Shown piece by piece: positions 1 to 19,891 of a stretch of 20,000 nt of DNA (positions are counted from its first letter, which is position 1; each line of letters opens with the position of its first letter). Made by a program: the position numbers and the translations under genes. The notes beneath the pieces were generated by a model, which saw only the letters and a program-made list of their open reading frames with translations, had not been told where the DNA came from and made no database searches. The stretch comes from an uncultured virus (IMG/VR IMGVR_UViG_3300031851_000015) (Duplodnaviria > Heunggongvirae > Uroviricota > Caudoviricetes): IMG/VR virus record IMGVR_UViG_3300031851_000015. One strand, 5' to 3'.

Positions 1-695
1 TACTCTCTGGCAAACTTTAAAGGATCAAGTGTTAGTTTTACTCTCTCAATTTCTTCTTCATCAAGGAAAGGAGAGTCGTGATATGTGTAATGATAGTTTT
101 TCCAATCTTCATCAGAATCTTGTCTGTTATACATCTCATAAAAATAATCATACCCTTTGGGAGTGCTAATAATAAGCGCTCTACCTGAGTTAGCCCCAAA
201 CTTTTTAGCGTTCTGAGGAGACCAACGAGTACTCACACAAGGTTGTATAATAGATTCCCAAGACTCCTTGAGATTCATACCTGCACCCTTCCATGATGTA
301 ACCTCATCAGCTACTACAAAGTATTGACCTGTACCACGCATACGCTGTGATGCCTCATATGACCATAACTTTAGTTGTACATTTCTAGGAAACCAGAACG
401 TACCAGCAGCCTTAGATGCTTTATCAGCAAAGTCCTCCATGCCTAACTGCCAAGCTATTAGTGGATAGTAAATATCTACTGCCTGAGAGTAAGTAGGTGC
501 TATTAGTGCTACGTTCTTATTAGGTACTGACTCGTCTAATTCCATTAACTCTTGTACTGCTACGATAGCTGCTGTTGCTGCTAGGTATGACTTACCAAAA
601 CCACGACTAGCATTAACTACTGCATATCTGCAAGACTTATCTACGAACAGATCTCTGATAACATCAGACTGTCCTTCATGTAAATTAATTTCCAT
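1..695 (-). CDS. terL: Terminase large subunit, N-terminal ATPase domain (runs off the window edge)
   Basis: Manual translation from ATG at 695: MEINLHEGQSDVIRDLF...VVNASRGFGKSYLAA (Walker A), IAPTYSQA, RMRG, YFVVADE (Walker B), IISTPKG (motif C). Absent from the ORF track because the frame is open to the window end. Confidence 0.93.
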   Translation of the reverse strand, partial: MEINLHEGQSDVIRDLFVDKSCRYAVVNASRGFGKSYLAATAAIVAVQELMELDESVPNKNVALIAPTYSQAVDIYYPLIAWQLGMEDFADKASKAAGTFWFPRNVQLKLWSYEASQRMRGTGQYFVVADEVTSWKGAGMNLKESWESIIQPCVSTRWSPQNAKKFGANSGRALIISTPKGYDYFYEMYNRQDSDEDWKNYHYTYHDSPFLDEEEIERVKLTLDPLKFARE

Positions 696-1212: not shown

Positions 1213-1479
1213 TTATCTAATCTGTCGGTCTTGTTCCATCATATCTCTGATGGCCTTTATATTCTCATCCATACGTACCATAGTCAAAGCTTGAGATTGA
1301 ACTATATCTTCTAAAGCTTCTAAGCGAACCTCTTGGCGCATTAAGTCTCTAGTATTATTTTGTATAGCATTATCTAAGCTAGATACATACCATACAAGAG
1401 CTATTGTTTGAAATAAGATGGCTAAAATAAATGTTACAGGCACACTCTTAGAGAGATGCCAAGGATCTGAATCACTCAT
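1213..1479 (-). CDS. Small membrane protein with a coiled coil (possibly holin/XhlA-like)
   Basis: Start reassigned to ATG at 1479 (MSDSDPWHLSK), preceded by AAGGA. One TM segment (VPVTFILAILFQTIALVWYV) followed by a heptad-like region. Confidence 0.65.
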   Translation of the reverse strand: MSDSDPWHLSKSVPVTFILAILFQTIALVWYVSSLDNAIQNNTRDLMRQEVRLEALEDIVQSQALTMVRMDENIKAIRDMMEQDRQIR

Positions 1480-1840
1480 CGTCTTTTTCCTTATTATTAG
1501 TGAGTAATATAGAAATAGGCTTCTTTTCAGTAACCTCTTGCTCGATCTTATCAGGGATTTTCTTATAGCCATACATCATTAAGTTATTAATGAGAGTGCC
1601 TTGAGTAGCTACTAGTTGAGCATATGCACCACCACCTAAAGGTGTTTTACCGCTGTGATGATGAGCTAACTGCTCTTCAATATAGTTATACTTCTTAACC
1701 ATCATCTCAATAGGGTCAAATTGAAGCTCTTCAAGCTTTCTAACAGACGCCATAGAGTTAATATTCTTAGACCCTTTAGGACGACCAGCGCCTTCACGCC
1801 GACCACCCATTTGAGGCTTAGTCGGATTCGGATTAGCCAT
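1472..1840 (-). CDS. terS: Putative terminase small subunit
   Basis: N-terminal GGRREGAGRPKGSKN motif typical of many TerS proteins; 122 aa; upstream of terL; AAGGA RBS. Confidence 0.75.
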   Translation of the reverse strand: MANPNPTKPQMGGRREGAGRPKGSKNINSMASVRKLEELQFDPIEMMVKKYNYIEEQLAHHHSGKTPLGGGAYAQLVATQGTLINNLMMYGYKKIPDKIEQEVTEKKPISILLTNNKEKDDE

Positions 1841-1980
1841 TTTGTTCAGTCCTTCTTTCTGGAATGTTTTTCAATTGAAATTTTTTATAATTCTTTTCAT
1901 ATATTTAAAAGAATACTATAATAACTTATTGAAAACATTTAATTTCTTATTTATAACCAACCAATACAAAAGTATAGTTT

Positions 1981-2154
1981 TTAATACTTACACTAAGGAT
2001 ACCAAAGTGATATCAATAACCCCCCGTGCTGTATACACAGAGAGTGTAGAGAGGATACTATCGGGGGGCATTTAGAGCATTCTCTTTCAAGTATCAGTAG
2101 AGAAGTCCTAGATATCACTTTGGCAGAGCCTTAGCAAAGTTATTAAGTTTATTC
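1981..2154 (-). ncRNA. Putative structured non-coding RNA (~174 nt), three-way junction
   Basis: Begins at the predicted +1 of the phage promoter. Nested inverted repeats: 2002-2014/2111-2123 (13 bp perfect), 1993-1998/2129-2134, 1981-1989/2137-2146 (one bulge), 2020-2026/2062-2068, 2034-2038/2044-2048, 2080-2085/2099-2104. No ORF on the minus strand. Confidence 0.6.
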
Positions 2155-2171
2155 TTAAACGTCAGGTATTA
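2149..2171 (-). promoter_or_regulatory. Putative phage RNAP promoter for the late/packaging region, TAATACCTGACGTTTAA|GAATAA
   Basis: Intergenic copy of the repeated motif, one mismatch in -17..+3 versus the 10702 copy; T7-like 17-nt upstream geometry; predicted +1 G at 2154. Confidence 0.85.
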
Positions 2172-2174
2172 TTT

Positions 2175-2456
2175 TCAGACAGAAATATCAAGAACTTCTC
2201 CTTGAAATAATCGTTGTCTTTCGTAGTAAGTATTGTTTTGTTGTTTTTGTAGAGTCATTAGCTCTTCAGCTTTTTCTCTCCAATTTTTTTCTAAAACCTT
2301 TTGAGCTCTTTTCTCTTGAGCTGTTATCATTTCTTCTCTAGTCTCTCGATAAGCACCATCTTCTGGCATCATAGCTTCATTATAAGGTTTAAAGACTATG
2401 TTGTCATGTGTTTCGAAAGGCATATTGGGAAGAGGCATGTGAGATATTAATGTCAT
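2175..2456 (-). CDS. Hypothetical protein (93 aa)
   Basis: Start reassigned to ATG at 2456 (MTLISHMPL) with an AGGA RBS; the longer track ORF runs through the hairpin and poly-T tract. Confidence 0.7.
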   Translation of the reverse strand: MTLISHMPLPNMPFETHDNIVFKPYNEAMMPEDGAYRETREEMITAQEKRAQKVLEKNWREKAEELMTLQKQQNNTYYERQRLFQGEVLDISV

Positions 2457-2470
2457 AGCTTTCCTATTTG

Positions 2471-2538
2471 AAAAAAAAAAAAATAAATCCCCACACCCCT
2501 CCAACCACCCCCAAAGGAGCAGCTAGAGAGATGTGGGG
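2471..2538 (-). terminator. Long hairpin (23 bp, 7 G-U pairs, UUUG loop) followed by a U13 tract
   Basis: Minus-strand RNA CCCCACAUCUCUCUAGCUGCUCC-UUUG-GGGGUGGUUGGAGGGGUGUGGGG-AUUUA-U13, directly after the stop at 2546. Confidence 0.75.
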
Positions 2539-4811: not shown

Positions 4812-5357
4812 TTATATCTCTCTTATATCATAATTAAATTTTTTAAAATCTTCTTCAAACAAGTTACTAATTAAACTTTTAGCATAATCGTCATAATAAT
4901 CTTTATAATTATACGTAGGTTGACTGTTAACTTTAGTTGAAGTTAATTTTACTTTAATGAAATCTTCTAGGTCTTTTAATTCTGTTTCTAATTTAAAAAA
5001 TTTTACTTTATTATTTTTATTAGATTTAATAAATTTATTTTGAGAAGTATTTATAGTCCAATTATCATTATCTACATCTTTCCAATAATCTTTAAAAGAT
5101 AGTTTACTAGAAGTATATAACCATTGGCTAACTGCCCTGCTATAAGGATTTCTTACTATTGTAATAAATTTATTAGTATTAATTTCAGATTCCCACATAT
5201 ATAATGGGTAATGTTGGGTTCCTATTTTAAAATTTAAATCTAAAGCATACCGATAAGGCTCTTGAATATTTTTTAATTGCATTCTACAATTATATTTTAA
5301 ATTAGTACCACTAGTTTTTGGTATATGAATAAAAGCCCATTTGTCTGTATATATCAT
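4812..5357 (-). CDS. Sulfotransferase family 2-like protein
   Basis: 5'-PSB motif FIHIPKTSGT, 3'-PB motif TIVRNPYSRAVS and C-terminal DFKKFNY. ATG at 5357 preferred over the track's TTG at 5375. Confidence 0.8.
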   Translation of the reverse strand: MIYTDKWAFIHIPKTSGTNLKYNCRMQLKNIQEPYRYALDLNFKIGTQHYPLYMWESEINTNKFITIVRNPYSRAVSQWLYTSSKLSFKDYWKDVDNDNWTINTSQNKFIKSNKNNKVKFFKLETELKDLEDFIKVKLTSTKVNSQPTYNYKDYYDDYAKSLISNLFEEDFKKFNYDIREI

Positions 5358-5358
5358 A

Positions 5359-5381
5359 TTATTCTTTAACGTCAACTATAT
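5359..5381 (-). promoter_or_regulatory. Degenerate phage RNAP promoter ATATAGTTGACGTTAAA|GAATAA
   Basis: -10..+3 identical to consensus (TGACGTTAAAGAA) and ATA at -15..-13 kept; CC>GT at -12/-11 where it overlaps the RNR stop codon. Confidence 0.5.
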
Positions 5382-7247
5382 TTCACAACCACCTGCACCG
5401 CAAGCTAGTGTTTGAGCACCTTCAGTTTCATCTTCAAATTCATAGTTAGGAAGCAAAGAAAAGTCTACTTCAGGGAAAGCATGAACCGCTTTAATATACT
5501 CTTGCTCAGTGCAAGGCGAATAAGGAGCTTGTGCATAAGTATGCTCACTGTAAGGCAAGAAACTAATGCCAGTTACGTTATCAAAGTTCTTGAATACCCA
5601 ATCACCTACCTCTAGCCATTCATGTTCTTTCACATAAATAGTTACTGAAACTGAGTGTTCAGACCACCAAGTTTGATAAGCCAACCAGTTTTCAAGCTGC
5701 TCGATAGCTGTTTGTTCGTTAGCTAGTGTAGCACCTGTTGGTGATTTAATTGGAAAGTAAAATACAGTAGTACGCTCTAAGTTCATAGCGTCTGGTTCGT
5801 TAGGTACACCTTGATCTTTAAGAAGTTGTGTTAAAGGATCATTGTTTGACTGACGAACAGATCGAATATAATAAGGGGCAAAGCGACCATGAATGCCACT
5901 AGCGCTGTCAACAAGCTGGCTAACAGTACCACTTGGCTTAACTGTAGTAATAGCTGTAGCGGGGTTAATAGAAAGCCTTTCGGAATAGTCTCTATTAGTT
6001 TGAATAGCAACATCTTTCATTTCCTTTAACAGCTTTGGATCAGGATTTTGTAACAATTTACAGTCCTGAATACCAGTTAAGCTTACACCTAGTAAGCTTT
6101 CTTCTTCACAATTCTTTTGCCATACTTTACGAACATATTTAAAGTCTGTTAGAGATGCTTGAAACGTACCAAGAATAGTAGCAATACGTACTTTACGCTT
6201 GAGATCTTCTTCTGTGTCATCTACTCGACATACTACTTCCGATAAGTTGCAGAGTTGTCCTGAACGCAATAAGATTTCTGCACAAGGATTAGTGCCACGA
6301 ATTTGTGAACTATCTCTGCGACCCCCGTTAGTATTGCGTTGAGCGCCATAGCGACTATAAATACCACGCTCACCAGAGCCTGATTTCTTAAGCGCTAACC
6401 ACTCTTCCATGAATACATCCATAGAAGGCTTTTGATCATAAGCAGCAGAGTTATTAGCCAAAGCACGTTGTGAGTTATTTTCCCACCACATACCTGATTT
6501 AGCATCCCGCACTTCTGGGTCTGTAAGATCACTTAAAGAAATTAAAGCAGAGCGGCGTACACCGCCTACTACAACAATCTCTGCAATTTTACACACAATA
6601 TCGTGTACTTCAATAGGGCGTAGTTTACGACCTGCTGCGTTCTTAAACGTAGTTGTTACAAACTCAAATAAACGTTTAAGAGGTTCAGGGCCAGAAGCCC
6701 GACCACCCATAGTTTTAAGACGAGCACCTTCTGGTCTAACTTTAGAATAATCCCATTCATGTTCATTTCCTAAATATAAATCTGCTACAAGTTTACGTAA
6801 TCCTTTTGCCCAACCTTCAGCACTATCTTCAATAGAAATAGTACGTTCTGTTTTAACAAATTGATCGTTAATAATAGGTAGTTTATTTACAGCACTAGCT
6901 TCAGCTGAAAAGCCTACACCTGTACCAGCCATAAGAATATAAAGTATTTCATCAAATACTCTAGGATGATCAACTTCTACAAAGCTACAGTTATAGCCTC
7001 GGAAGTGATTTTTTGATAGTGCGTCTCCAGCACTCCACATAGAGCGCATAGAGGGCATGACTTCTTTGTTGTATACAGCATCATGCACCTCTTGGAATTC
7101 CGCATCAGTAATAACATTATTACCAATTTGTTCTTTCCAAAATCCGATGAGTCTATCTACAGTTTCGTTCCACGTTTCGCGCCGATTCCAGTCAGCTATA
7201 AAACGTGAGTATCGTGAAAGATGGATAAAGTCTTCGTAAGCTTTCAT
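5376..7247 (-). CDS. nrdJ: Class II adenosylcobalamin-dependent ribonucleotide reductase (monomeric RTPR-like)
   Basis: YNCS, VVVGGVRRSA, GTNPCAEI (thiyl-radical Cys), CNLSE, TTVKPSGTVSQL and C-terminal CGAGGCEI. No beta-subunit gene in the window. Confidence 0.92.
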   Translation of the reverse strand: MKAYEDFIHLSRYSRFIADWNRRETWNETVDRLIGFWKEQIGNNVITDAEFQEVHDAVYNKEVMPSMRSMWSAGDALSKNHFRGYNCSFVEVDHPRVFDEILYILMAGTGVGFSAEASAVNKLPIINDQFVKTERTISIEDSAEGWAKGLRKLVADLYLGNEHEWDYSKVRPEGARLKTMGGRASGPEPLKRLFEFVTTTFKNAAGRKLRPIEVHDIVCKIAEIVVVGGVRRSALISLSDLTDPEVRDAKSGMWWENNSQRALANNSAAYDQKPSMDVFMEEWLALKKSGSGERGIYSRYGAQRNTNGGRRDSSQIRGTNPCAEILLRSGQLCNLSEVVCRVDDTEEDLKRKVRIATILGTFQASLTDFKYVRKVWQKNCEEESLLGVSLTGIQDCKLLQNPDPKLLKEMKDVAIQTNRDYSERLSINPATAITTVKPSGTVSQLVDSASGIHGRFAPYYIRSVRQSNNDPLTQLLKDQGVPNEPDAMNLERTTVFYFPIKSPTGATLANEQTAIEQLENWLAYQTWWSEHSVSVTIYVKEHEWLEVGDWVFKNFDNVTGISFLPYSEHTYAQAPYSPCTEQEYIKAVHAFPEVDFSLLPNYEFEDETEGAQTLACGAGGCEI

Positions 7248-7499: not shown

Positions 7500-7753
7500 T
7501 AATGCATATTCCTTTTTGATTGTAAGTGTGAATTCATTATCGTGTCTGCAAAATAATAAAACCTGTCACCTAACTCTGTACTTTGTTCGTTAATGTTGTG
7601 AAAAGAATTAACTATCTTTTCTATAAAGTCCATTACATTAGGATTAATTTCTGATACATCTGCACCACCATCTAGTAGTTGCAATATTATAGACATCCAA
7701 AACTCGTCTGGTGGAGAATCAAACTCGCTCAAAGTTCTCTTCGTTGAATTCAT
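7499..7753 (-). CDS. Hypothetical protein (84 aa)
   Basis: ORF track; overlaps the helicase 3' end. Confidence 0.7.
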   Translation of the reverse strand: MNSTKRTLSEFDSPPDEFWMSIILQLLDGGADVSEINPNVMDFIEKIVNSFHNINEQSTELGDRFYYFADTIMNSHLQSKRNMH

Positions 7754-9356
7754 CGGAACCCTTTCTTAATCTGCCTGTGTCAAAGTTATAAAACATAGAA
7801 CCTGATGGGCCAGTTAAGCCTGTGTATCTACATTTAAGAACTTTAGTCCTAATAGTATTTCTTTCTTCTTCACTTTCTGAACCTACGTTTCTAGCAAAAG
7901 CAATAATATCCATACTAATTTGTTTAATACTACCAGAGCCACGAATATCATCCATAGAGGGTAGTTTACCTTCTTCAAAGCTTTTACCTTTGTTATCTGT
8001 TTTACGCAAATGGCTAATAAGACCTAGCCATACGTTATACTTCTTAACCAACCGTAAAAGGTCATTCATAATTTTATCTATCGCTTCATTTCCGGTGAGT
8101 CCTTCAGTTCCTTCAGAAGCAAGTATAGTAATGTGGTCCACAAAGAGATACTTACAACCGCTAAGACACATATACTCAAGAAAATCCATGATGGAGCCAT
8201 CAGATATAGAACCTTGATGATCAAGGACCATAACACGGTTATCACTGAAAATAGTATCAAATCCTTCTTTAAGTTCATCTATAGGGATCTCCTCTTTGGC
8301 AGGGTTTCTACTAAGAGCCATTCCAGACATTTTTCTTGCAGTTTCAGCGGGACTTTCTTCCAGACTGATAAGGCCGATTTTATCTTCAGTTCTTTCAAGA
8401 AGATGTACAGCAATTTCCCGAAGAAGCGTACTTTTACCTGATCCGGTTCCGCTAGTCCAGAGAGTGATTTCTCCGAATCGCATACCCTTAAGCTTCTCAT
8501 TAAGACCTTCCATAAAGTCGGGATAAGGTACAGATTCAATTTCATTGTAAGCCTCCAGTTGAGTCCATAGTTCATCTTTAGTAAGAATACCTGCAGGTGT
8601 GTAGTCTACAGCATCGTAGATCACTTTTAATACTTTGTCAGGGTCTTTTATCCAAAGATCACTAGCATCTTTCTCTGATGATTTAGCTATCTTAATCTTA
8701 TCATAACCTATTATACGAGCAGCTTCTTTTACTGCTTTTTCGCCAGCTTCGTCCTTATCAAGCCATAAAATAACTTCATCAAAGTTACGAATCCAATCAC
8801 GACATTCGATAAGATCTCGTATAGAACTAGCACTACGAATACTAACCACAGGATAAAAAGTTTTATACTTCTTATACCAAGCTGATTGGACTGCCATAGC
8901 ATCTAGCTCACCCTCCGTTATTACTAATCTTTTACCACCGTTGTAGAGTTGTTGTCCAAATAGTCCACCTTTAACGGTACCACATGAGGTAAAGGTTTTG
9001 GGTAGATCTCTGACTTTGTAACCGGAGATCTTGTTGCCCACATAATAAGGATAGTAATGGCTAGAAATATCTCCGTCGATATTATAAGATACTTTAACAC
9101 CGTAATGCTCCGATACTTGTTTATAAATGTTTCTTTCTTTAAAGCCACGTATCGGATAGTCTTCTGTAATTTCTTCTACCGTATCATTATTAACTGCTAC
9201 CCATTGTGTTTCTACTGGTTGCATGTTGCCCTCCTTTGGGGCAGGGAAAGAGGCTCTACAAGAAAAACAAAATGCAGAGCCTTCTTCATAAATTTGTTTG
9301 GCATCTGAACTGCCACACTTTTCACATGGTTGATTACGAGTGACTATTGTCCCCAT
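7719..9356 (-). CDS. T7 gp4-like DNA primase-helicase
   Basis: N-terminal Zn finger CEKC..CFSC, TOPRIM motifs (ITEGELDA, LDKDEAG), Walker A GTGSGKST, FVDH, SHLRK and DIRGSGSIKQ. Confidence 0.95.
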   Translation of the reverse strand: MGTIVTRNQPCEKCGSSDAKQIYEEGSAFCFSCRASFPAPKEGNMQPVETQWVAVNNDTVEEITEDYPIRGFKERNIYKQVSEHYGVKVSYNIDGDISSHYYPYYVGNKISGYKVRDLPKTFTSCGTVKGGLFGQQLYNGGKRLVITEGELDAMAVQSAWYKKYKTFYPVVSIRSASSIRDLIECRDWIRNFDEVILWLDKDEAGEKAVKEAARIIGYDKIKIAKSSEKDASDLWIKDPDKVLKVIYDAVDYTPAGILTKDELWTQLEAYNEIESVPYPDFMEGLNEKLKGMRFGEITLWTSGTGSGKSTLLREIAVHLLERTEDKIGLISLEESPAETARKMSGMALSRNPAKEEIPIDELKEGFDTIFSDNRVMVLDHQGSISDGSIMDFLEYMCLSGCKYLFVDHITILASEGTEGLTGNEAIDKIMNDLLRLVKKYNVWLGLISHLRKTDNKGKSFEEGKLPSMDDIRGSGSIKQISMDIIAFARNVGSESEEERNTIRTKVLKCRYTGLTGPSGSMFYNFDTGRLRKGSDEFNEENFERV

Positions 9357-9528
9357 CATCTGCTCCTATATGTGCTGTGAATTTAGACATTTCTTGAAAC
9401 AATAAAAAGAATATAATACTTGTAATAGGATTAACTAAGTGATAACCCATAATTTCTGAGACTAAAGTAAAGGCTAATAAACCTACACTTACAATCCACA
9501 GGGCTACTGCCATTGGTGATACTTCCAT
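9334..9528 (-). CDS. Small two-TM membrane protein
   Basis: 64 aa with two hydrophobic segments; translationally coupled to its neighbours. Confidence 0.65.
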   Translation of the reverse strand: MEVSPMAVALWIVSVGLLAFTLVSEIMGYHLVNPITSIIFFLLFQEMSKFTAHIGADDGDNSHS

Positions 9529-9992
9529 TATAAAAACCTTTTCTTTAATACATTAACATACCTCTTGGTTTTTGTAGTAGGAAACTCTTTTGGTACAAAC
9601 CTAATAGCAGCAATTTGTCTATTGTAAAACCTAGGTGTAACATTGTCAGGTAAATACTCTGTCATACAATCAGATAACATTTGAAGGTAAGCTTCTGCAT
9701 AATACAGTCCACCTTTAGTTTTATAAAGGTCTACAATCTCAAATCTAAAGTTATCTTTTTTGTACTTGCCAATATCTTGTTTTAAAGCTTTAGAAGAACC
9801 TACATAGGTTTTCCATGTCATTGCTTTACCATAAGTCCTAGACTTCTTTTTACCACCATGCCAAAATTGTTTCTTTCCAATATAATACTGTTTAGTAGCT
9901 AAATTTTCTATACAATATACAAAGCCAAACCAATCACTAGGATCAAACTTTTTATTATATTCCCAGTGACCCTTATCTGTTAACATAAGCAT
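9528..9992 (-). CDS. GIY-YIG family endonuclease
   Basis: GFVY...YYIGKK motif pair, YVGSS, FRFEI, conserved E (YYAEAY) and FYN. Start probably ATG at 9992 or 9986. Confidence 0.8.
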   Translation of the reverse strand: MLMLTDKGHWEYNKKFDPSDWFGFVYCIENLATKQYYIGKKQFWHGGKKKSRTYGKAMTWKTYVGSSKALKQDIGKYKKDNFRFEIVDLYKTKGGLYYAEAYLQMLSDCMTEYLPDNVTPRFYNRQIAAIRFVPKEFPTTKTKRYVNVLKKRFL

Positions 9993-10686
9993 TATACTTT
10001 TCTTTTGGCAGAATAAAATGATCGTCTTGTTTACGCCAGATATGCAATAGCTTGCCATTCGCTAACATATGAGCGTGACCTTCATCAATGTAAAAATCAT
10101 TGTATGCCTTACAAACAATTTCTTTTCGATGCGCAGGTAACGTTGTACCTTCAAGCATTTTTTCAGCTTTCTTAGGTCCAATTTTAGGAATACCTGGGAT
10201 ATTGTCTACACTATCACCCATAAGTAATTGTTTCCAATAGAAATAATCAGCATAGTCTTTGTCAATTATATAAGTTTCTTTTTTACGAGGATTGTAGTGA
10301 AGACCTTCAATGCAGTCTAAGTCCTTATCTACAGTAACAATTGCATAAGGTTGTTTACATTCGTTGGCCCAAATGCGAACCATGTCATCAGCTTCACAAT
10401 TATCTGTTAGTATACAACCTTCATACTCGTTTACAACATCTGATTTCAAATCTAAGAACCAGTCTGGTCTTGTAGATTTTGACTTTGATCGATTAGCTTT
10501 ATACTCAGGGTATACGTCTACTCTAAAGTTATCAGGACCACCTAAGGCCATAACATAATCAGTTGTAAATAAGTCTTCTAGTATAGCAGTAAAAAGACTA
10601 TCAAAGTTTTCTCGTGCTTCTTCTTTGGTTTCTGCACCCCATATACTCATGTATAGTAGTACATCACCATCAACAATAGCTAACAT
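9973..10686 (-). CDS. T7 gp6-like 5'-3' exonuclease
   Basis: IVDGD, FR..YPEYKANR, EADD, DKDL and GDSVDNIPGIPKIGPKKA (H3TH) motifs. Confidence 0.93.
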   Translation of the reverse strand: MLAIVDGDVLLYMSIWGAETKEEARENFDSLFTAILEDLFTTDYVMALGGPDNFRVDVYPEYKANRSKSKSTRPDWFLDLKSDVVNEYEGCILTDNCEADDMVRIWANECKQPYAIVTVDKDLDCIEGLHYNPRKKETYIIDKDYADYFYWKQLLMGDSVDNIPGIPKIGPKKAEKMLEGTTLPAHRKEIVCKAYNDFYIDEGHAHMLANGKLLHIWRKQDDHFILPKEKYNAYVNR

Positions 10687-10701
10687 AGTAGCTCCTTTAT
10701 A

Positions 10702-10724
10702 TTGTTCTTTAACGTCAGGTATTA
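10702..10724 (-). promoter_or_regulatory. Putative phage RNAP promoter TAATACCTGACGTTAAA|GAACAA
   Basis: 23 nt (10701-10723) identical to 17390-17412; intergenic, directly upstream of the exonuclease RBS (AAGGAG); predicted +1 at 10707. Confidence 0.88.
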
Positions 10725-10725
10725 T

Positions 10726-10893
10726 TTACTCTTCGTTTTCTTCGGCTTCTATGCCTCTGCGAACTAACTCAAGAAAACCCATGTTAAAAATTTGAGCAAA
10801 AGTTTCTTTGTCAAGATCTAACTCTAATGTTGCAGATCCATCTTCATGTTCATCAATAGAAGCTACATGAATGCTGTATACTTTACTTTCCAT
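10726..10893 (-). CDS. Acidic hypothetical protein (55 aa, not in ORF track)
   Basis: MESKVYSIHVASIDEHEDGSATLELDLDKETFAQIFNMGFLELVRRGIEAEENEE*; GAGG RBS. Confidence 0.7.
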   Translation of the reverse strand: MESKVYSIHVASIDEHEDGSATLELDLDKETFAQIFNMGFLELVRRGIEAEENEE

Positions 10894-12054: not shown

Positions 12055-12309
12055 TTAATCAGTGTAGTTGGGTTTAACTTTGTAGTGCTCATGAATACTC
12101 TTCTTTACGTTAGATTTCATACGTTTAACTTCTAACGCGTGTTGATACTCAGGTTTATCTAATAAAACTTCCATAAACTCTTCAATAGCTTTTACTCTAG
12201 CTTCTAAAGATTTTTTAGGAAAATTACCAAAAGGGTCATGCATATTAGCCATCGATCTTTCTTTAGCTCTATTTCTTTCTTCATCGTCAAAAGGTCTAAT
12301 GAACGTCAT
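12055..12309 (-). CDS. Hypothetical protein
   Basis: ORF track; the ATG at 12309 is properly spaced from AGGAG. Confidence 0.7.
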   Translation of the reverse strand: MTFIRPFDDEERNRAKERSMANMHDPFGNFPKKSLEARVKAIEEFMEVLLDKPEYQHALEVKRMKSNVKKSIHEHYKVKPNYTD

Positions 12310-14137
12310 AATAGTCATCTCCTATTTTACAATCACCACAAGTCATAATGTTAATACCATATTGTTTAGGGGCGTCTTCAAAGCATTTAATAATGATTTC
12401 TTTAGCTTGTTTTGCCTCGTTTTCTTTAACTTCTACAGTATGTTCATCATGATAAAACAACAAATGTTTAAAATCAATCTTATTTTCTTTTAAACGTTTA
12501 TCAATAAGGTCAACAGTAGCTTTCATAACTACTGCTTCAGCACCTTGAATAAGATAGTTAAGAGCTTTATGTTTTTCAGATGGATCTAAACATATCTTTC
12601 TATCATCCAAGCCTGGAATAAATCCTTGTTTTTCTATTAATCCATTGACTTTATCAACTAGCTTAGCTAAAGCAGGTAAAGCTTTTTTATATCGATGCAT
12701 AGCTGATCTTGCTTGACTTACTGTTTGATCAATATACCCACTAAGTTTTTGAGCACCAGCACCATAAAGATAAGCAAAGATAAATCGTTTAGCTTGATCA
12801 CGGGTGCAGCCAATAATATCTGCATTCATTTGATGGATATCACCGTTAAGCACTGTATCAGTAAACTTAGAATCATCCATGTAGTGTGCTAAGAGACGAA
12901 GCTGACAAGCAGCTGAATCAGCACTAACAAGTTTATAGCCGCTAGGGGTAACAAAAAGTCTCCTAAATTCGGGACCAAGGGTTGCTTTTCCTGAAGGGAG
13001 GTTAGCAATGATTTTGTGGGTTTGTCGAAAAGTAGGTGTACCAATATTAAAAACGTCACCATGTAACCTACTATTATTATCCACATGCTCAAACCACCCT
13101 TCAAGTATTGATTTACGAGATCTAAGAGTATAATACTCCATTAATGATTGTCCCACTTCCCCAAGTGGTTCCAAGGAATTATCGGAGAGTTTTGGAGATA
13201 CCTTGATGAATTCTCCATTGACTCTTTTCCAATTCCATTCGTCCGGTTTCCATCCGATTGAATAGAGGTAACGTTTAACCGTATCAGTATTACCAATGTC
13301 ACCAATAACAAAATCAATCCGAGAGTAATTAGCCCAAACGGGGCAAGTATCAACAGTGGTGCCATCAGGAAGCCCAAACCAACGCTGTATGTGCGAACTA
13401 AGTCTTCCTGCCTTCGTGTAAGTCGGTTTCTTTTCGATTGCATAGCGTTTTCCTGTAATTGGTTCGTGTTCTTTCTTTGTATCAGGATCAACTACTTTTA
13501 CAGAAGCACTTAGTTTAGGATTAATAAAGTCAGAAATAATCTTCATCTTTTTATCAATTGTAACTAATAAATCTTCTGCGGCTGATTTATCAAATTTCCA
13601 ACCATTCTGGCATTGCTCTACCATAATCTTATCTAGATTCATTTCAGAGCGTAATGCTTTTAATACTGCTTTTGACTTAGTATTTTTAACGTAAGTCTGT
13701 AATTCTTTTAACAAGTACTTGTAAACTTTAGTACCAAGACGAACATCTTGTTGCATGTATACAAACATTTCTTCGTTAAATTCTTCAAAGCCCGATGAAT
13801 AATCCCCTTTATTATCGTTAAAGAATTCACCCCATATCTTTAAAGAATGGCCAAATCCAAATCTACGATAGTTAAGGACTTGAGACATAACTTTAGTACA
13901 ATGTACTGTGGCTTTAGGTTGCCAACCTGTTAGTTTAGTTAAAGCAGGAATATCATAGCCAAAAGCATTATGAGCCACAATAGTATCTGCTTTATCTAGT
14001 AGTTCTAAGAACTCATTAAGCTGATGAGGTCGAAACCAGTATTCTTTACCAGTATCGACATCGATAGCACCAGCGCAATGAAACTTAGACAGTTTTGGCA
14101 GAAGATTATCTGCCTCTATGTCAAAGACTAGTCTCAT
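12296..14137 (-). CDS. polA: Family A DNA polymerase with 3'-5' exonuclease (T7 gp5-like)
   Basis: ExoI FDIEAD, ExoII HNAFGYD, ExoIII YMQQD; motif A SADSAACQLRLLAHY, motif B RDQAKRFIFAYLYG, motif C YHDE. Confidence 0.95.
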   Translation of the reverse strand: MRLVFDIEADNLLPKLSKFHCAGAIDVDTGKEYWFRPHQLNEFLELLDKADTIVAHNAFGYDIPALTKLTGWQPKATVHCTKVMSQVLNYRRFGFGHSLKIWGEFFNDNKGDYSSGFEEFNEEMFVYMQQDVRLGTKVYKYLLKELQTYVKNTKSKAVLKALRSEMNLDKIMVEQCQNGWKFDKSAAEDLLVTIDKKMKIISDFINPKLSASVKVVDPDTKKEHEPITGKRYAIEKKPTYTKAGRLSSHIQRWFGLPDGTTVDTCPVWANYSRIDFVIGDIGNTDTVKRYLYSIGWKPDEWNWKRVNGEFIKVSPKLSDNSLEPLGEVGQSLMEYYTLRSRKSILEGWFEHVDNNSRLHGDVFNIGTPTFRQTHKIIANLPSGKATLGPEFRRLFVTPSGYKLVSADSAACQLRLLAHYMDDSKFTDTVLNGDIHQMNADIIGCTRDQAKRFIFAYLYGAGAQKLSGYIDQTVSQARSAMHRYKKALPALAKLVDKVNGLIEKQGFIPGLDDRKICLDPSEKHKALNYLIQGAEAVVMKATVDLIDKRLKENKIDFKHLLFYHDEHTVEVKENEAKQAKEIIIKCFEDAPKQYGINIMTCGDCKIGDDYYDVH

Positions 14138-14318
14138 CAACTTTCCTCATTTCTTTAGCCATACTATAAAGAAGAAACGCCATTTGATCTCCATTGTTTT
14201 CATGAATATTTTTTAGCCAAAACTGTGAAGCCCAATACTCTAAAGAGTCTGCTAGGCTCGAATAGCTAGTTTCATCCATTTCAAAACTTAATTTTTCAAG
14301 ATCTACGGTATTGCTCAT
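14121..14318 (-). CDS. Hypothetical protein (65 aa)
   Basis: ORF track; GGAGG RBS. Confidence 0.72.
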   Translation of the reverse strand: MSNTVDLEKLSFEMDETSYSSLADSLEYWASQFWLKNIHENNGDQMAFLLYSMAKEMRKVDETSL

Positions 14319-17341: not shown

Positions 17342-17390
17342 AATATTTATTTCCTCTTGGATATATGTAAATTAAGTTTTATTTGAACAA

Positions 17391-17413
17391 TTGTTCTTTA
17401 ACGTCAGGTATTT
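17391..17413 (-). promoter_or_regulatory. Putative phage RNAP promoter AAATACCTGACGTTAAA|GAACAA
   Basis: Identical 23-mer to the copy at 10701-10723; intergenic, upstream of ssb; predicted +1 at 17396. Confidence 0.88.
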
Positions 17414-17414
17414 T

Positions 17415-17645
17415 TTATTTAATAATATCAACCAGTTCATCGATATTATCATCGTACATTTCCATGTAAAAGTCATCATCAGACTCCCACATGTTTACAC
17501 CAGAACACATAGCACCAAAGCCATCTTCCCAAACGTCAGTAACAGTTGCGGTTGGTATTTCTGGCATTGTTTCAAAAGCTTTTATTCGGATAATGCTACC
17601 TTCTTTAAGCAAAGGCAAAGTCCGACTTAAGGGCGTCTCTGACAT
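17415..17645 (-). CDS. Acidic hypothetical protein (76 aa)
   Basis: ORF track; AAGGA RBS; overlaps the RNAP 3' end. Confidence 0.65.
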   Translation of the reverse strand: MSETPLSRTLPLLKEGSIIRIKAFETMPEIPTATVTDVWEDGFGAMCSGVNMWESDDDFYMEMYDDNIDELVDIIK

Positions 17646-19758
17646 TTAAGTTTCCTTTCTCTGGAATTAAATCTTCTGAATCTAGTTGCTGCAGAATATT
17701 CTCAAGAGGCAAGCTCTCATAAAGTTCTACAAACTTTTCTCTGACATGATAAAACATCTTATCCATGTTACCTGCATGACAACCAAAAGAGTCATGTACT
17801 ACAGTAGTTGGATAGTCTGCATCATGTATACACATAGTTAAGTGTACAGCATCAAGGCTATGAACCACATTAGGTGCAGCACCAGTCTTCTGTTTAGTTT
17901 CATTTACAGTTGTTTCTTCCCACACTTGAAGCTGTACTTTAAGAATATCTTCACCGTACTTAAGCTCTGTGCGCTTATTAGTAGGTTTTCGATAGGCTTG
18001 TACAACAGGAAATCCAGTAACAGGGGAAATCCAACTCATATGAACTTTCTTTTTGTTAGCTCTCTCTGCTAAACTTTGAAACATCTTAAGTAGCTTTGCT
18101 GGCCCCTTAAGCTCTTCATAACAGGTCTTATACACCAGAGCGCCAAGGAGTGCGCCCCAGAGATGCTCTTTGTCTCTTAGATAGGTAGATATATCTCTAG
18201 TGTCTTCTATTACCTGTTGGCCCATACCGTAGGACGTACCACCATAGCCTAGAGTCATTACATTTCTCTTAACAGTCTTACGTTGAATTTTCTTATCTTG
18301 AATATTCAACCAGTATGTCGGAAATAATTTTTCTCGTAAGTCACGGTTTTGATTACGCCATGTTTGAGCAGTCTTAAAGGCTACAGACTTTCTTTCAGAC
18401 TTATCAGGGGCAGTTTCATATTCTCTTTGAAGACTAACAGCTGTATTAAATACCTCATCAAATTGGTTTTCAACAGAAGTATCTCGTTTACGTTCTAGGT
18501 TTTCCCATACCTTTTCTGCTATAAACATATAGACATCTCCAGGCAAATTACTTGGAACAAGATTTACTAAAGGTGCCACTTCATCGTCTTGAGACATAGC
18601 TACAAGGTGTTGAACGCCGTTATTAGAGCCATCAATGTAAACTGGAAGACAAGAAGGAAAGTCTTCTATGTTTCCTTCCCACTCTGTTAACATTTTAATT
18701 TCATGACAAGCGGCAAGAAAACTAAATGGTTTATCTGCTTTCATCCAATCAGTGCTTGTCATTGGGTTTGTAGCATATTCAATAAATGTTTCTGCATTGT
18801 CTATAACAAACTGCACTCTATCATCGAGGCTTACTTTGTCATTACCCCAAATATTTGCAGTATGAACATAAAGCCAATAAACACCGTTTTCCCCTAGTGG
18901 TACAGGTTCGTCTAGCATTAAAATGCCTTTAGCATTGTCACTAGACTGCTCGTGTAAGAACGCTGTATTAGGGTAAATACGGCCTCGGAAGTCGAGGTTA
19001 TACAAGTGGTAGAAAGGCTTGTCTATGTGCTTCTCTGCAAGCCTCTGAATAGCTTCTGCTTCAATGATTAACGAAGCCCGTTTAATTGGATCAATTTCTT
19101 TTGTAAACTTAAAGGGATTAACTTCAGAGTGCATACACGCTTTGTACGTATCAAATACAAAGTTGTTAATACGCCAGCCTGTATGATTAAGCCTATTAAG
19201 AGTGTCTACAATATAAGTCATATCACTATTTTCAAAGTGATCTAAAGCAGCTTCATAGCCTTTTTTAATTACACTTATACCTGTTACTTCGTGATATGGG
19301 TCTTTACGCCAGTTTTCAGCAGGTGTGTTAACTGGAAACATGTCACACTTTTCAATGTCTACTAAGTCCATAAGCTCTTTAATAGCCTTCCAGTCTTTAG
19401 CAAACAAGAAATAAGATCTATGTTTATCTTTTTTACCGTTTTTGTAAGTATGTTTCTTACGATAACCTAGTATACCTAACTCAATGTAGCTAATAATTAC
19501 AAACCAACCACCTTGAACGTCTAGTACACTGTTTTGTTTTTGTCTAAGTTTTTGTCTAAGTCGTCTGCCAATACTAGATGCGACTTCTACTAGAGTTGCT
19601 TTCCTTTCTAAACCTTTTAGTATGTGTGAGTAAGAAAATTCAATAATATCTCTAGGTGACATTGTGTCTAAGAAACTTGCAGATTGTCTCTTATCTAATG
19701 ATTTTTGTCGATATTCCAGATCTTCAGTTAGTAAGTCTAGAATAGTTTTTTCTTTCAT
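17605..19758 (-). CDS. T7/T3-type single-subunit DNA-dependent RNA polymerase
   Basis: DFRGRIY, motif A PVYIDGSNNGVQH, motif B RKTVKRNVMTLGYG, APNVVHSLDA, motif C VHDSFG and C-terminal FAFA as in T7 RNAP; ATG at 19758. Confidence 0.96.
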   Translation of the reverse strand: MKEKTILDLLTEDLEYRQKSLDKRQSASFLDTMSPRDIIEFSYSHILKGLERKATLVEVASSIGRRLRQKLRQKQNSVLDVQGGWFVIISYIELGILGYRKKHTYKNGKKDKHRSYFLFAKDWKAIKELMDLVDIEKCDMFPVNTPAENWRKDPYHEVTGISVIKKGYEAALDHFENSDMTYIVDTLNRLNHTGWRINNFVFDTYKACMHSEVNPFKFTKEIDPIKRASLIIEAEAIQRLAEKHIDKPFYHLYNLDFRGRIYPNTAFLHEQSSDNAKGILMLDEPVPLGENGVYWLYVHTANIWGNDKVSLDDRVQFVIDNAETFIEYATNPMTSTDWMKADKPFSFLAACHEIKMLTEWEGNIEDFPSCLPVYIDGSNNGVQHLVAMSQDDEVAPLVNLVPSNLPGDVYMFIAEKVWENLERKRDTSVENQFDEVFNTAVSLQREYETAPDKSERKSVAFKTAQTWRNQNRDLREKLFPTYWLNIQDKKIQRKTVKRNVMTLGYGGTSYGMGQQVIEDTRDISTYLRDKEHLWGALLGALVYKTCYEELKGPAKLLKMFQSLAERANKKKVHMSWISPVTGFPVVQAYRKPTNKRTELKYGEDILKVQLQVWEETTVNETKQKTGAAPNVVHSLDAVHLTMCIHDADYPTTVVHDSFGCHAGNMDKMFYHVREKFVELYESLPLENILQQLDSEDLIPEKGNLNVRDALKSDFAFA

Positions 19759-19891
19759 ATATGTCAATTTCCTTTAGTTAGGGCATTAAGCTATTGCTTC
19801 CCTTATGAGGAACTTTATTAACAATTATTTGTTTTGAATTATCATTACGACAATTAAATAAATAGTAATAATTGTTAACATTATATCTTTC

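Follow-up and report, generated by a model that had tools for sequence, protein, structure and literature searches.

A conserved kissing-loop RNA predicted to open the late transcript of uncultured marine phages

The 20,000-nt stretch of DNA analyzed here (hereafter, the window) derives from an uncultured virus of the class Caudoviricetes (IMG/VR record IMGVR_UViG_3300031851_000015). On its minus strand, directly behind a promoter of the type used by phage single-subunit RNA polymerases (RNAPs), it contains a structured RNA in which a closing duplex, P1, leads into a three-way junction with two hairpin arms whose loops pair with each other (Table 1). We consider it settled that this element is a real RNA fold under selection, non-coding and with a tertiary contact between its loops, and that it makes up the first approximately 170 nt of the late transcript as predicted from the promoter. 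Its role can be stated less firmly. We favor, with a probability of about 40%, a cis-acting 5'-terminal leader that protects or processes a late transcript of approximately 25 kb.

The minus strand of positions 1975 to 2154 folded with a minimum free energy (MFE) of -60.7 kcal/mol, compared to a mean of -34.6 ± 3.7 kcal/mol for dinucleotide-shuffled controls (z = -7.16), and none of the 200 shuffles folded as well. An earlier reading of this DNA, made from its letters and without database searches (the sequence-only reading), had drawn an interrupted closing stem, arm 1, and arm 2 with a distal hairpin, and all of these elements were recovered at the same positions in the MFE structure. It had also noted that GAUACU in the loop of arm 1 is complementary to AGUAUC in arm 2, and it had proposed that a phage-RNAP promoter drives the RNA and that selection acts on the minus-strand RNA. 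Both proposals were supported by the comparisons described below.

Relatives were collected by means of the 122-aa open reading frame (ORF) downstream of the RNA (1472 to 1840), which yielded 96 stretches in viral contigs; 80 loci were kept. BLASTN detected the RNA in 44 of the 80 loci, corresponding to 31 distinct sequences with identities down to 69%, and a covariance model built from 26 distinct sequences (R1) found it on the gene strand in 51 of them. Base pairing was counted in a model-guided alignment of 42 matches (37 distinct sequences), a procedure that leans toward the nested helices and not toward the pseudoknot, which lies outside the model. Across the 37 distinct sequences, 98.3% of 1,313 cells were standard pairs, a proportion that was 39 to 59% when the 3' partners were slid by 1 to 3 columns. 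Both sides had changed in 23 of the 38 pairs, and the observed covariation score was reached by none of 500 shuffles. A plain MAFFT alignment agreed with these values (97.5% paired; 18 of 38 pairs compensatory). Helices 1 to 3, which make up P1, were paired in 93.8 to 100% of cells, with compensatory changes in 15 of their 21 pairs.

The kissing helix was paired in 222 of 222 cells, and four of its six pairs had changed on both sides. Six fully complementary versions were observed: GAUACU/AGUAUC, GGUACU/AGUACC, GACAUC/GAUGUC, GAUAUC/GAUAUC, GGUAUC/GAUACC, and GACAGU/ACUGUC. These cells represent sequences and not independent events; even so, the combinations of versions need several separate double changes. 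The aligned members further indicate that the constant core is a pair of near-equal hairpins that kiss, mounted on a three-way junction. The uninterrupted stem of arm 1 measured 6 to 7 bp in 29 of the 37 distinct sequences, and its loop L2 followed the consensus TAYYG-N5-TGAAA in 36 of them, the exception (L076) having TGGAA. The stem of arm 2 was 7 to 8 bp long with six invariant inner C-G pairs, and the partner hexamer started exactly 2 nt after it. The junction strands were less conserved than the loops. By analogy with purine-riboswitch-type junctions, the near-equal arms and short fixed linkers favor hairpins that lie side by side and kiss within one molecule, and the A-rich 3' flank of loop L2 beside the invariant G-C helix suggests, again by analogy, a compact, triple-helix-like knot.

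Among the pair cells, 64 were G-U and none was A-C. Only the gene strand is thus compatible with the observed pairing, which places selection at the level of RNA. It should be noted that the opposite strand also folds well (z = -5.4). The difference in R1 score between the strands (176 versus 32 bits) was considered as a further argument and dropped, because primary sequence accounts for most of it and because the opposite strand has the stable fold just mentioned. That fold, together with a location beside the packaging genes and an AT-rich tract, is what can be said for an element that acts at the level of DNA, be it a pac or ori site or an inverted-repeat cruciform. The G-U and A-C counts speak against such an element, as does the covariation of a tertiary loop-loop pair, for which duplex DNA offers no reason. 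In addition, the element starts at the promoter +1 behind three different promoter types, and relatives have an ORF in place of the AT-rich tract. We regard it as the least probable of all the readings considered.

The element is not a gene, because a reading frame is open across it in just 1 of 33 full-length members and because the lengths of these members, 159 to 214 nt, fall into all three classes modulo 3. It is thus non-coding. The same length range bears on the resemblance of the 174-nt window RNA to the packaging RNA (pRNA) of phage phi29, which is equally long according to the sequence-only reading; the suspicion voiced there that the match in size is a coincidence appears justified.

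The promoter in front of the RNA belongs to a 28-nt direct repeat that is present in four copies, all on the gene strand of the window (2148 to 2175, 5358 to 5385, 10701 to 10728, and 17390 to 17417). Its core, TACCTGACGTTTAAG, was invariant across 31 aligned relatives, and the end of this core is the start of the RNA. By analogy with T7-type promoters, we infer a +1 at 2154, within a few nucleotides. In the main promoter group, the predicted start lies 0 to 8 nt before P1, so that the first few nucleotides of the predicted transcript are locked into P1 or, in a lineage that lacks P1, into arm 1. The leaders of two other exact-consensus promoters in the window were unstructured (z of -1.9 to +1.1 for the first 60 to 180 nt, compared to -7.2) and reached a ribosome-binding site within approximately 20 to 55 nt. 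The kissing-loop RNA is the only structured leader among the window phage promoters that were folded.

The extent of the transcription unit was assessed in G001, an IMG/VR record of 60.8 kb (89% complete) that is 94 to 97% identical to most of the window and contains exactly one copy of the RNA. Same-strand promoter copies with at most two mismatches are located at 1.9, 59.2, 53.9, 50.9 (the copy at the RNA), 25.94, and 25.85 kb. Since the next copies after that at 50.9 kb are those at 25.94 and 25.85 kb, approximately 25 kb downstream of the RNA are free of another promoter copy; this block comprises the terminase and presumably the structural genes. No terminator-like site was found after the RNA in the window. 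Upstream of the late promoter, a long hairpin followed by a U-run (Table 1) has a counterpart in divergent relatives and in the cultured phage DSS3_VP1. Downstream of this hairpin, a near-consensus sigma-70-type promoter (ATGACA-17-TATAAT, 11 of 12 positions) is present at 2379 to 2407 on the minus strand, inside or just before a small ORF (2175 to 2504), and it is possible that the host polymerase expresses this ORF. G001 has approximately 515 nt extra directly upstream of the late promoter (G001:50938-51454), between window positions 2171 and 2175. The gene content just upstream of the promoter thus varies between G001 and the window, whereas promoter and RNA are constant.

The RNA core was found behind three promoter-like boxes, ...CTGACGTTTAAG, CCCCTTATGATA, and CCGACTAATGATA, a difference that suggests diverged RNAP specificities within the clade. 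Late-operon boxes of the latter two kinds were seen at L072:~1170 and in L145/L146; at L133:~330 and L076:~80; and in L073, L078, L081, L083, and L077.

A fold that is made right after a promoter calls to mind the put RNAs of phage HK022, cis-acting antitermination elements that act on the multi-subunit host RNAP. Here, too, a two-hairpin RNA is produced immediately behind the promoter, upstream of a long operon. The nascent fold could accordingly be imagined to bind the phage RNAP and to render it resistant to pausing or termination over the long late block. Its promoter-proximal position at one promoter only, the approximately 25 kb that follow without another promoter copy, and the presence of strong hairpin and U-run terminators in these genomes are all in line with this idea. 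However, the same core occurs behind three promoter types, so that diverged polymerases would have to respond to it. The polymerase in question is of the T7 type, an effect of the RNA on it is hypothetical, and to our knowledge no put-like RNA is known for single-subunit RNAPs. We consider a polymerase-modifying function improbable.

Twenty public sequencing runs contained part of a 6-kb stretch of this DNA, nine of them recorded as RNA, and four marine metatranscriptome runs from four studies were aligned. Their contigs together span the whole 6-kb stretch; two of the runs have no cover over positions 2001 to 2200. One RNA-library contig (1720 to 2483) bridges promoter and RNA. Such contigs give neither ends nor levels, and carry-over of DNA is possible, so they document only the presence of the region in marine RNA libraries and count neither for nor against a discrete RNA. 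The discrete 174-nt transcript envisaged by the sequence-only reading accordingly gained no support, given that no terminator-like site follows it.

The 29 loci without an R1 match, 8 of which have less than 260 nt of upstream sequence, did not contain the promoter motif in any case. A pattern of the invariant core nucleotides occurred in 93 viral-contig stretches, 80 of which were examined. Thirty-five of these proved to be true members, defined by an R1 match and loop complementarity, and eight of them came from contigs that were not among the loci collected first. Most of the other 45 stretches came from one unrelated, abundant phage family, where the pattern coincides with a gene end and terminator, and were rejected. 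In bacterial and archaeal genomes the pattern matched at least 120 times, with complementary loops in none of the 80 matches examined, which does not prove absence from cellular genomes. Among cultured phages, the nearest relatives are DSS3_VP1 and DSS3_PM1 of Ruegeria pomeroyi, members of the Naomviridae (genus Noahvirus) with an RNAP that is 56% identical. Neither of their complete records had an R1 match, nor did their terminase-upstream loci when searched with filters off. For the Naomviridae, replacement of thymidine (dT) by deoxyuridine (dU) is reported (PMC8323127).

Around the core, the periphery of the RNA is variable. The distal hairpin of arm 2 is missing in three loci (L012, L015, and L016), and an additional hairpin is inserted between the arms in L056, L057, and L135 or before arm 1 in L035, L019, and L084. 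The 5' end is extended in L043 and L045. Within the main group, the sequence of P1 is highly conserved. It is replaced by a wholly different, yet paired, sequence in L133 (approximately 50 bp) and in L071 and L166 (approximately 23 to 30 bp).

The gene that follows the RNA also changes. In L010, L051, L019, and L068, an ORF for a conserved, uncharacterized protein of approximately 247 aa (phrog_8198, E of approximately 1e-50) starts 5 to 54 nt after the RNA, and in L010 the RNA is 95.5% identical to that of the window despite the inserted ORF. Since different genes or a spacer directly follow the RNA, it belongs to the promoter and not to the gene. Relatives without the RNA (L073, L078, L081, L083, L077, and L069) have, at the same spot, a long perfect hairpin with a U-run, a promoter-like box, and short GC-rich hairpins. 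The corresponding place in DSS3_VP1 (L085:8550-8955, minus strand of the locus) is an unannotated gap of approximately 390 nt with a perfect hairpin of approximately 31 bp and a U-run, GC-rich hairpins, and a fold z score of -5.1. It contains two promoter-like TAGGGTRCGTTAAAGA boxes, which share the core ACGTT[T/A]AAGA with the window promoter. A structured start of the late transcript is thus a general trait of the wider family, of which the kissing-loop RNA represents the elaborate form seen in one clade.

We favor the 5'-terminal leader because of the position of the RNA, its restriction to the late promoter, its independence of the downstream gene, the lack of a terminator behind it, and the simpler hairpins that occupy the same slot elsewhere. 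It is known that 5' stem-loops stabilize bacterial mRNAs and that T7 mRNAs are processed by host RNase III, the substrates of which extend over about two helical turns, i.e., 20 bp or more. According to the proposed mechanism, the fold would bury the 5' end of the late transcript in P1 or arm 1 right after the start of transcription, and the kissing core would serve as a mechanically stable knot. Together, buried end and knot could guard a very long and probably ribosome-uncoupled late mRNA against 5'-end-dependent decay. Where a long P1 is present, it might additionally offer a site for host RNase III that separates the late RNA from upstream read-through RNA, and relatives without the RNA might meet the same need at the same place with plain GC-rich hairpins. 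Consistent with a 5' stabilizer, the 5' end is paired within a few nucleotides of the predicted start, in L072 and L145 by means of arm 1 following the promoter-like box. A duplex of at least 20 bp, as needed by RNase III, is present in the window (approximately 30 bp, interrupted) and in L133, L071, and L166 (approximately 23 to 50 bp), but missing from L072, L145, and L146. An RNase III-processed leader or late regulatory RNA is also the most plausible of the options listed in the sequence-only reading.

The transcripts of T7 offer the closest parallel to such processing. Like the RNase III hairpins and leader stem-loops of T7 mRNAs, the marine-phage RNA is part of a transcript of a single-subunit RNAP, has a long irregular duplex at the boundary of a transcription unit, and buries the 5' end. 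T7 RNase III sites, however, are simple bulged hairpins, whereas the RNA described here has a covarying tertiary core and is found at one promoter only; its cleavage is hypothetical.

Several observations weigh against the leader. A plain hairpin would suffice for 5' protection, and the invariant loop nucleotides, the invariant arm 2, and the exact 6-bp kiss suggest a more specific partner or function. The RNA is missing from 21 related loci that have 350 nt or more of upstream sequence, as well as from both cultured Naomviridae. In L072, L145, and L146 there is no long P1, and arm 1 starts a few nucleotides after a different promoter-like box; RNase III processing is therefore not the universal role. 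Moreover, the late start at 2154 is a prediction, and the RNA-library contigs, one of which bridges the promoter, show presence only.

A more specific partner is what would be expected of a stable RNA of approximately 120 to 170 nt that acts in trans, either freed by an RNase III cut in P1 or outliving the mRNA, and that has a phage or host protein as its binding partner; roles as an assembly factor, as an anti-defense RNA, or as a decoy for a host nuclease can be imagined. P1 stays a duplex of 23 to 50 bp even where its sequence is wholly replaced, loop nucleotides and arm 2 are invariant beyond the needs of pairing, and each genome has a single copy, behind a strong promoter and independent of the downstream gene. 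Eight of 41 RNA-bearing loci, as opposed to none of 10 RNA-less loci, had tRNA genes on the same strand at a distance of 60 to approximately 1,250 nt upstream of the RNA (Table 1), which may hint at a neighborhood of stable RNAs. On the other hand, no terminator defines a 3' end, one lineage has no P1, and the RNA-library contigs give neither expression level nor ends. No co-varying gene for a partner protein turned up, although no systematic search was made. We therefore rate a trans-acting RNA as unlikely, albeit next in probability to the leader. Somewhat less likely still is a stand-alone RNA of a new class in which P1 is an RNase III excision signal and the kissing-loop face binds a phage or host protein. 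Such an RNA might be a component of assembly or packaging, or might act on the single-subunit RNAP, a host nuclease, or a defense sensor. Nothing pointed to the 6S-like RNAP decoy that the sequence-only reading had listed.

Kissing hairpins on a three-way junction are also the hallmark of purine riboswitches, which combine L2-L3 kissing loops with a short, switchable P1. The marine-phage RNA shares this "tuning fork" topology, i.e., P1 plus two equal, side-by-side hairpins of approximately 7 bp with paired loops, and, as in riboswitch families, variable peripheral hairpins surround a fixed core with conserved unpaired nucleotides. A riboswitch-like or protein-operator leader, in which a metabolite or phage protein bound at the kissing-loop core tunes late expression, was considered for this reason. 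However, a P1 of 23 to 50 bp is too stable to switch, and conservation is lower in the junction strands than in the loops. An expression platform and a terminator are lacking, the next start codon is 5 to approximately 140 nt away and belongs to different genes, and no Rfam riboswitch matched even at permissive thresholds. A sensory function is doubtful, more so than either form of an independent RNA.

The likeness to phi29 pRNA that the sequence-only reading had raised was weighed in the same manner. The loop pairing of pRNA is usually described as comprising 4 bp. Like pRNA as depicted in the available text of PMC5066667, the RNA is phage encoded and approximately 170 nt long, joins its 5' and 3' ends in a long bulged helix, contains a three-way junction, and has a covarying loop-loop Watson-Crick pairing with one partner in a bulge loop below a distal hairpin, the place of the CE loop in pRNA. 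It also adjoins packaging genes, and covariation is blind to whether pairing is intra- or intermolecular, so oligomers held together by loop-loop pairing on the portal or terminase motor can be envisaged. Nevertheless, the order of the arms is reversed and the kiss spans 6 bp, compared to two intermolecular G-C pairs by nuclear magnetic resonance in pRNA (PMC5066667, available text). Whereas pRNA forms a ring on the prohead through intermolecular pairing, the equal arms and short fixed linkers would favor an intramolecular kiss here, and members of the family can do without the distal hairpin. Rather than a separate gene, the RNA is the beginning of an mRNA behind a phage-RNAP promoter. The same source describes phi29-like phages as having genomes of approximately 20 kb, a terminal protein, and protein-primed replication (PMC5066667). 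The present phage is not protein-primed; its genome exceeds 60 kb and encodes a T4-type large terminase along with a family-A DNA polymerase and a primase-helicase. As no Rfam family matched, pRNA included, kinship with pRNA found no support, and a packaging RNA of this kind is very unlikely.

A three-way junction with a loop-loop tertiary contact is, in addition, the architecture of natural hammerhead ribozymes, and the loop nucleotides (CUG...UGAAA) are conserved. A ribozyme that shortens the late transcript at its 5' end by self-cleavage is yet more improbable than a pRNA-like RNA: no hammerhead, twister, pistol, hatchet, twister-sister, or HDV-like family matched even at E values up to 10, the conserved nucleotides lie in loop L2 and not in the junction, where the hammerhead core lies, and no conserved cleavage-site context was identified.

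One further phage RNA merits comparison. The cabRNA of staphylococcal phages is likewise a structured phage RNA from the terminase locus (PMC10686824). As far as the available text of that paper goes, it is transcribed within the terS-terL coding sequence, has no sequence conserved between phages, and is defined by activation of the host cyclase of the cyclic-oligonucleotide-based antiphage signaling system (CBASS) (PMC10686824). In contrast, the marine-phage RNA is located in front of the genes, does not code for protein, and shows both conservation and covariation.

The RNA appears to be undescribed, as the sequence-only reading had assumed. No Rfam 15 family matched the window at gathering thresholds; with E values up to 10 on positions 1700 to 2500, the only hit was a chance match to a togavirus frameshift element outside the RNA, and seven divergent members had no match with E values up to 1. 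At the level of titles and abstracts, the literature on structured phage RNAs, kissing loops, and three-way junctions contained no description of it, and the terms "RNA polymerase" and "non-coding" do not occur in the available text of the Naomviridae paper (PMC8323127). A catalogue by Fremin et al. (2023) comprises 8,495 unnamed candidate structured RNAs predicted from IMG/VR, the collection to which the contigs used here also belong (PMC10690425). The ids of six carrier contigs are absent from the six supplement files of that study that were covered, and a prior listing there is possible (PMC10690425). From its sequences, the RNA can be regarded as a new family that places a known architectural theme in a new setting.

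All ORFs of substantial size in the window are on the minus strand and constitute the replication module of a phage whose RNAP is a single-subunit enzyme of the T7 type (Table 1). The ribonucleotide reductase gene is followed by small ORFs and then by the N-terminal part of the large terminase. The first gene downstream of the RNA had been taken for terS, a name that could not be confirmed: its product has no packaging-family match in Pfam, PHROGs, or NCBIfam, only a weak match to an uncharacterized PHROG, and the same databases yielded nothing informative for its neighbors. The N terminus of this protein is basic and rich in Gly, Arg, and Pro (…GGRREGAGRPKGSKN…), with an AT-hook-like look. 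A relationship to a pac site is conceivable for such a protein and the AT-rich, 140-nt tract before its gene. No tRNA genes were found in the window.

Two further ORFs of the window were noted. One encodes a SegE-type GIY-YIG homing endonuclease (9528 to 10058, minus strand; Pfam E of 5e-30), is flanked by the exonuclease and primase-helicase genes, and extends into the end of the exonuclease ORF. The other (4812 to 5375, minus strand) is sulfotransferase-like according to weak Pfam and PHROG matches and lies directly behind the promoter copy at 5358 to 5385. It is a strain-variable insert: positions 4847 to 5349 are missing from G001, and in two RNA runs contigs pass directly from 4823 to 5350, thereby omitting 526 nt, with a joint that comprises 9 shared nt.

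Table 1. Features of the structured RNA, its surroundings in the window, and related loci
Feature	Position	Strand	Remarks
Structured RNA: P1, three-way junction, two hairpin arms, kissing-loop pseudoknot	1981..2154	minus	z -7.16; R1 score 176 bits
P1, 5' strand of interrupted closing duplex	2111..2146	minus	Conserved 3-nt CUC internal loop; MFE and covariation
P1, 3' strand	1981..2014	minus	Carries conserved G-U pairs that fit only the minus strand; MFE and covariation
Arm 1 (P2)	2073..2110	minus	6-bp stem UUCUCU/AGAGAA plus 4-5 bp extension; MFE, covariation of helices 4-5
Loop L2 of arm 1	2086-2098	minus	13 nt, conserved flanks ACU...UGAA
Kissing hexamer GAUACU in loop L2	2090..2095	minus	Pairs with 2054-2059
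Arm 2 (P3)	2019..2069	minus	8-bp stem GCCCCCCG/CGGGGGGU, large loop; covariation of helix 7
Distal hairpin of arm 2 (optional)	2034-2048	minus	UACAC/GUGUA
Kissing hexamer AGUAUC in loop of arm 2	2054..2059	minus	2 nt after P3 stem
Late promoter (phage single-subunit-RNAP promoter)	2148..2175	minus	Core TACCTGACGTTTAAG at ~2154-2168; predicted +1 G at 2154
Terminator-like 20-bp hairpin with U-rich tail	2490..2537	minus	End of preceding transcription unit; ~340 nt upstream of late promoter
AT-rich, ORF-free spacer between RNA and next gene	1841..1980 (140 nt)	minus	Poorly conserved; alignment diverges right after P1
"terS-like" 122-aa ORF (name unconfirmed)	1472..1840	minus	First gene downstream of RNA; 96 relatives in viral contigs
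Large terminase subunit (T4-type), N-terminal part	3..695	minus	Continues beyond window; Pfam Terminase_6N E 1.6e-5; PHROG 2 E 1e-18
Ribonucleotide reductase	5376-7247	minus	
Toprim/DnaB primase-helicase	7719-9359	minus	
5'-3' exonuclease	9973-10686	minus	
Family-A DNA polymerase	12296-14140	minus	
RNAP	17605-19767	minus	Pfam RNA_pol, E 1e-86
phrog_8198 ORFs (not in window)	L010:1654-2397; L051:1325-2107; L019:1650-2393; L068:1617-2357		63-66% identical between lineages
tRNA genes (Arg-UCU, Leu-UAA, Trp-CCA, Met-CAU)	L135:1481-1646; L056:1502-1939; L057:270-346; L019:753-949		
tRNA genes, further loci	L022:1047-1208; L026:938-1099; L024:1443-1519; L012:902-975		

The RNA recurs, in conserved form, in dozens of contigs from uncultured marine phages that are related to the Naomviridae. 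Six complementary versions of the kissing pair without an exception constitute unusually clean evidence for a natural RNA pseudoknot and make the RNA a good subject for structure determination, and a family that is missing from Rfam 15 can now be modeled. If the RNA acts in trans, it would be part of a new phage ribonucleoprotein; as an assembly or packaging RNA, or as an RNA that acts on an RNAP, a nuclease, or a defense sensor, it would be without precedent for T7-type phages. If, as we favor, it protects or processes a T7-type transcript of approximately 25 kb, it would show how such phages stabilize uncoupled, ribosome-free mRNA, and a protective leader of this kind could possibly be used as a portable stabilizing element for T7-based expression.

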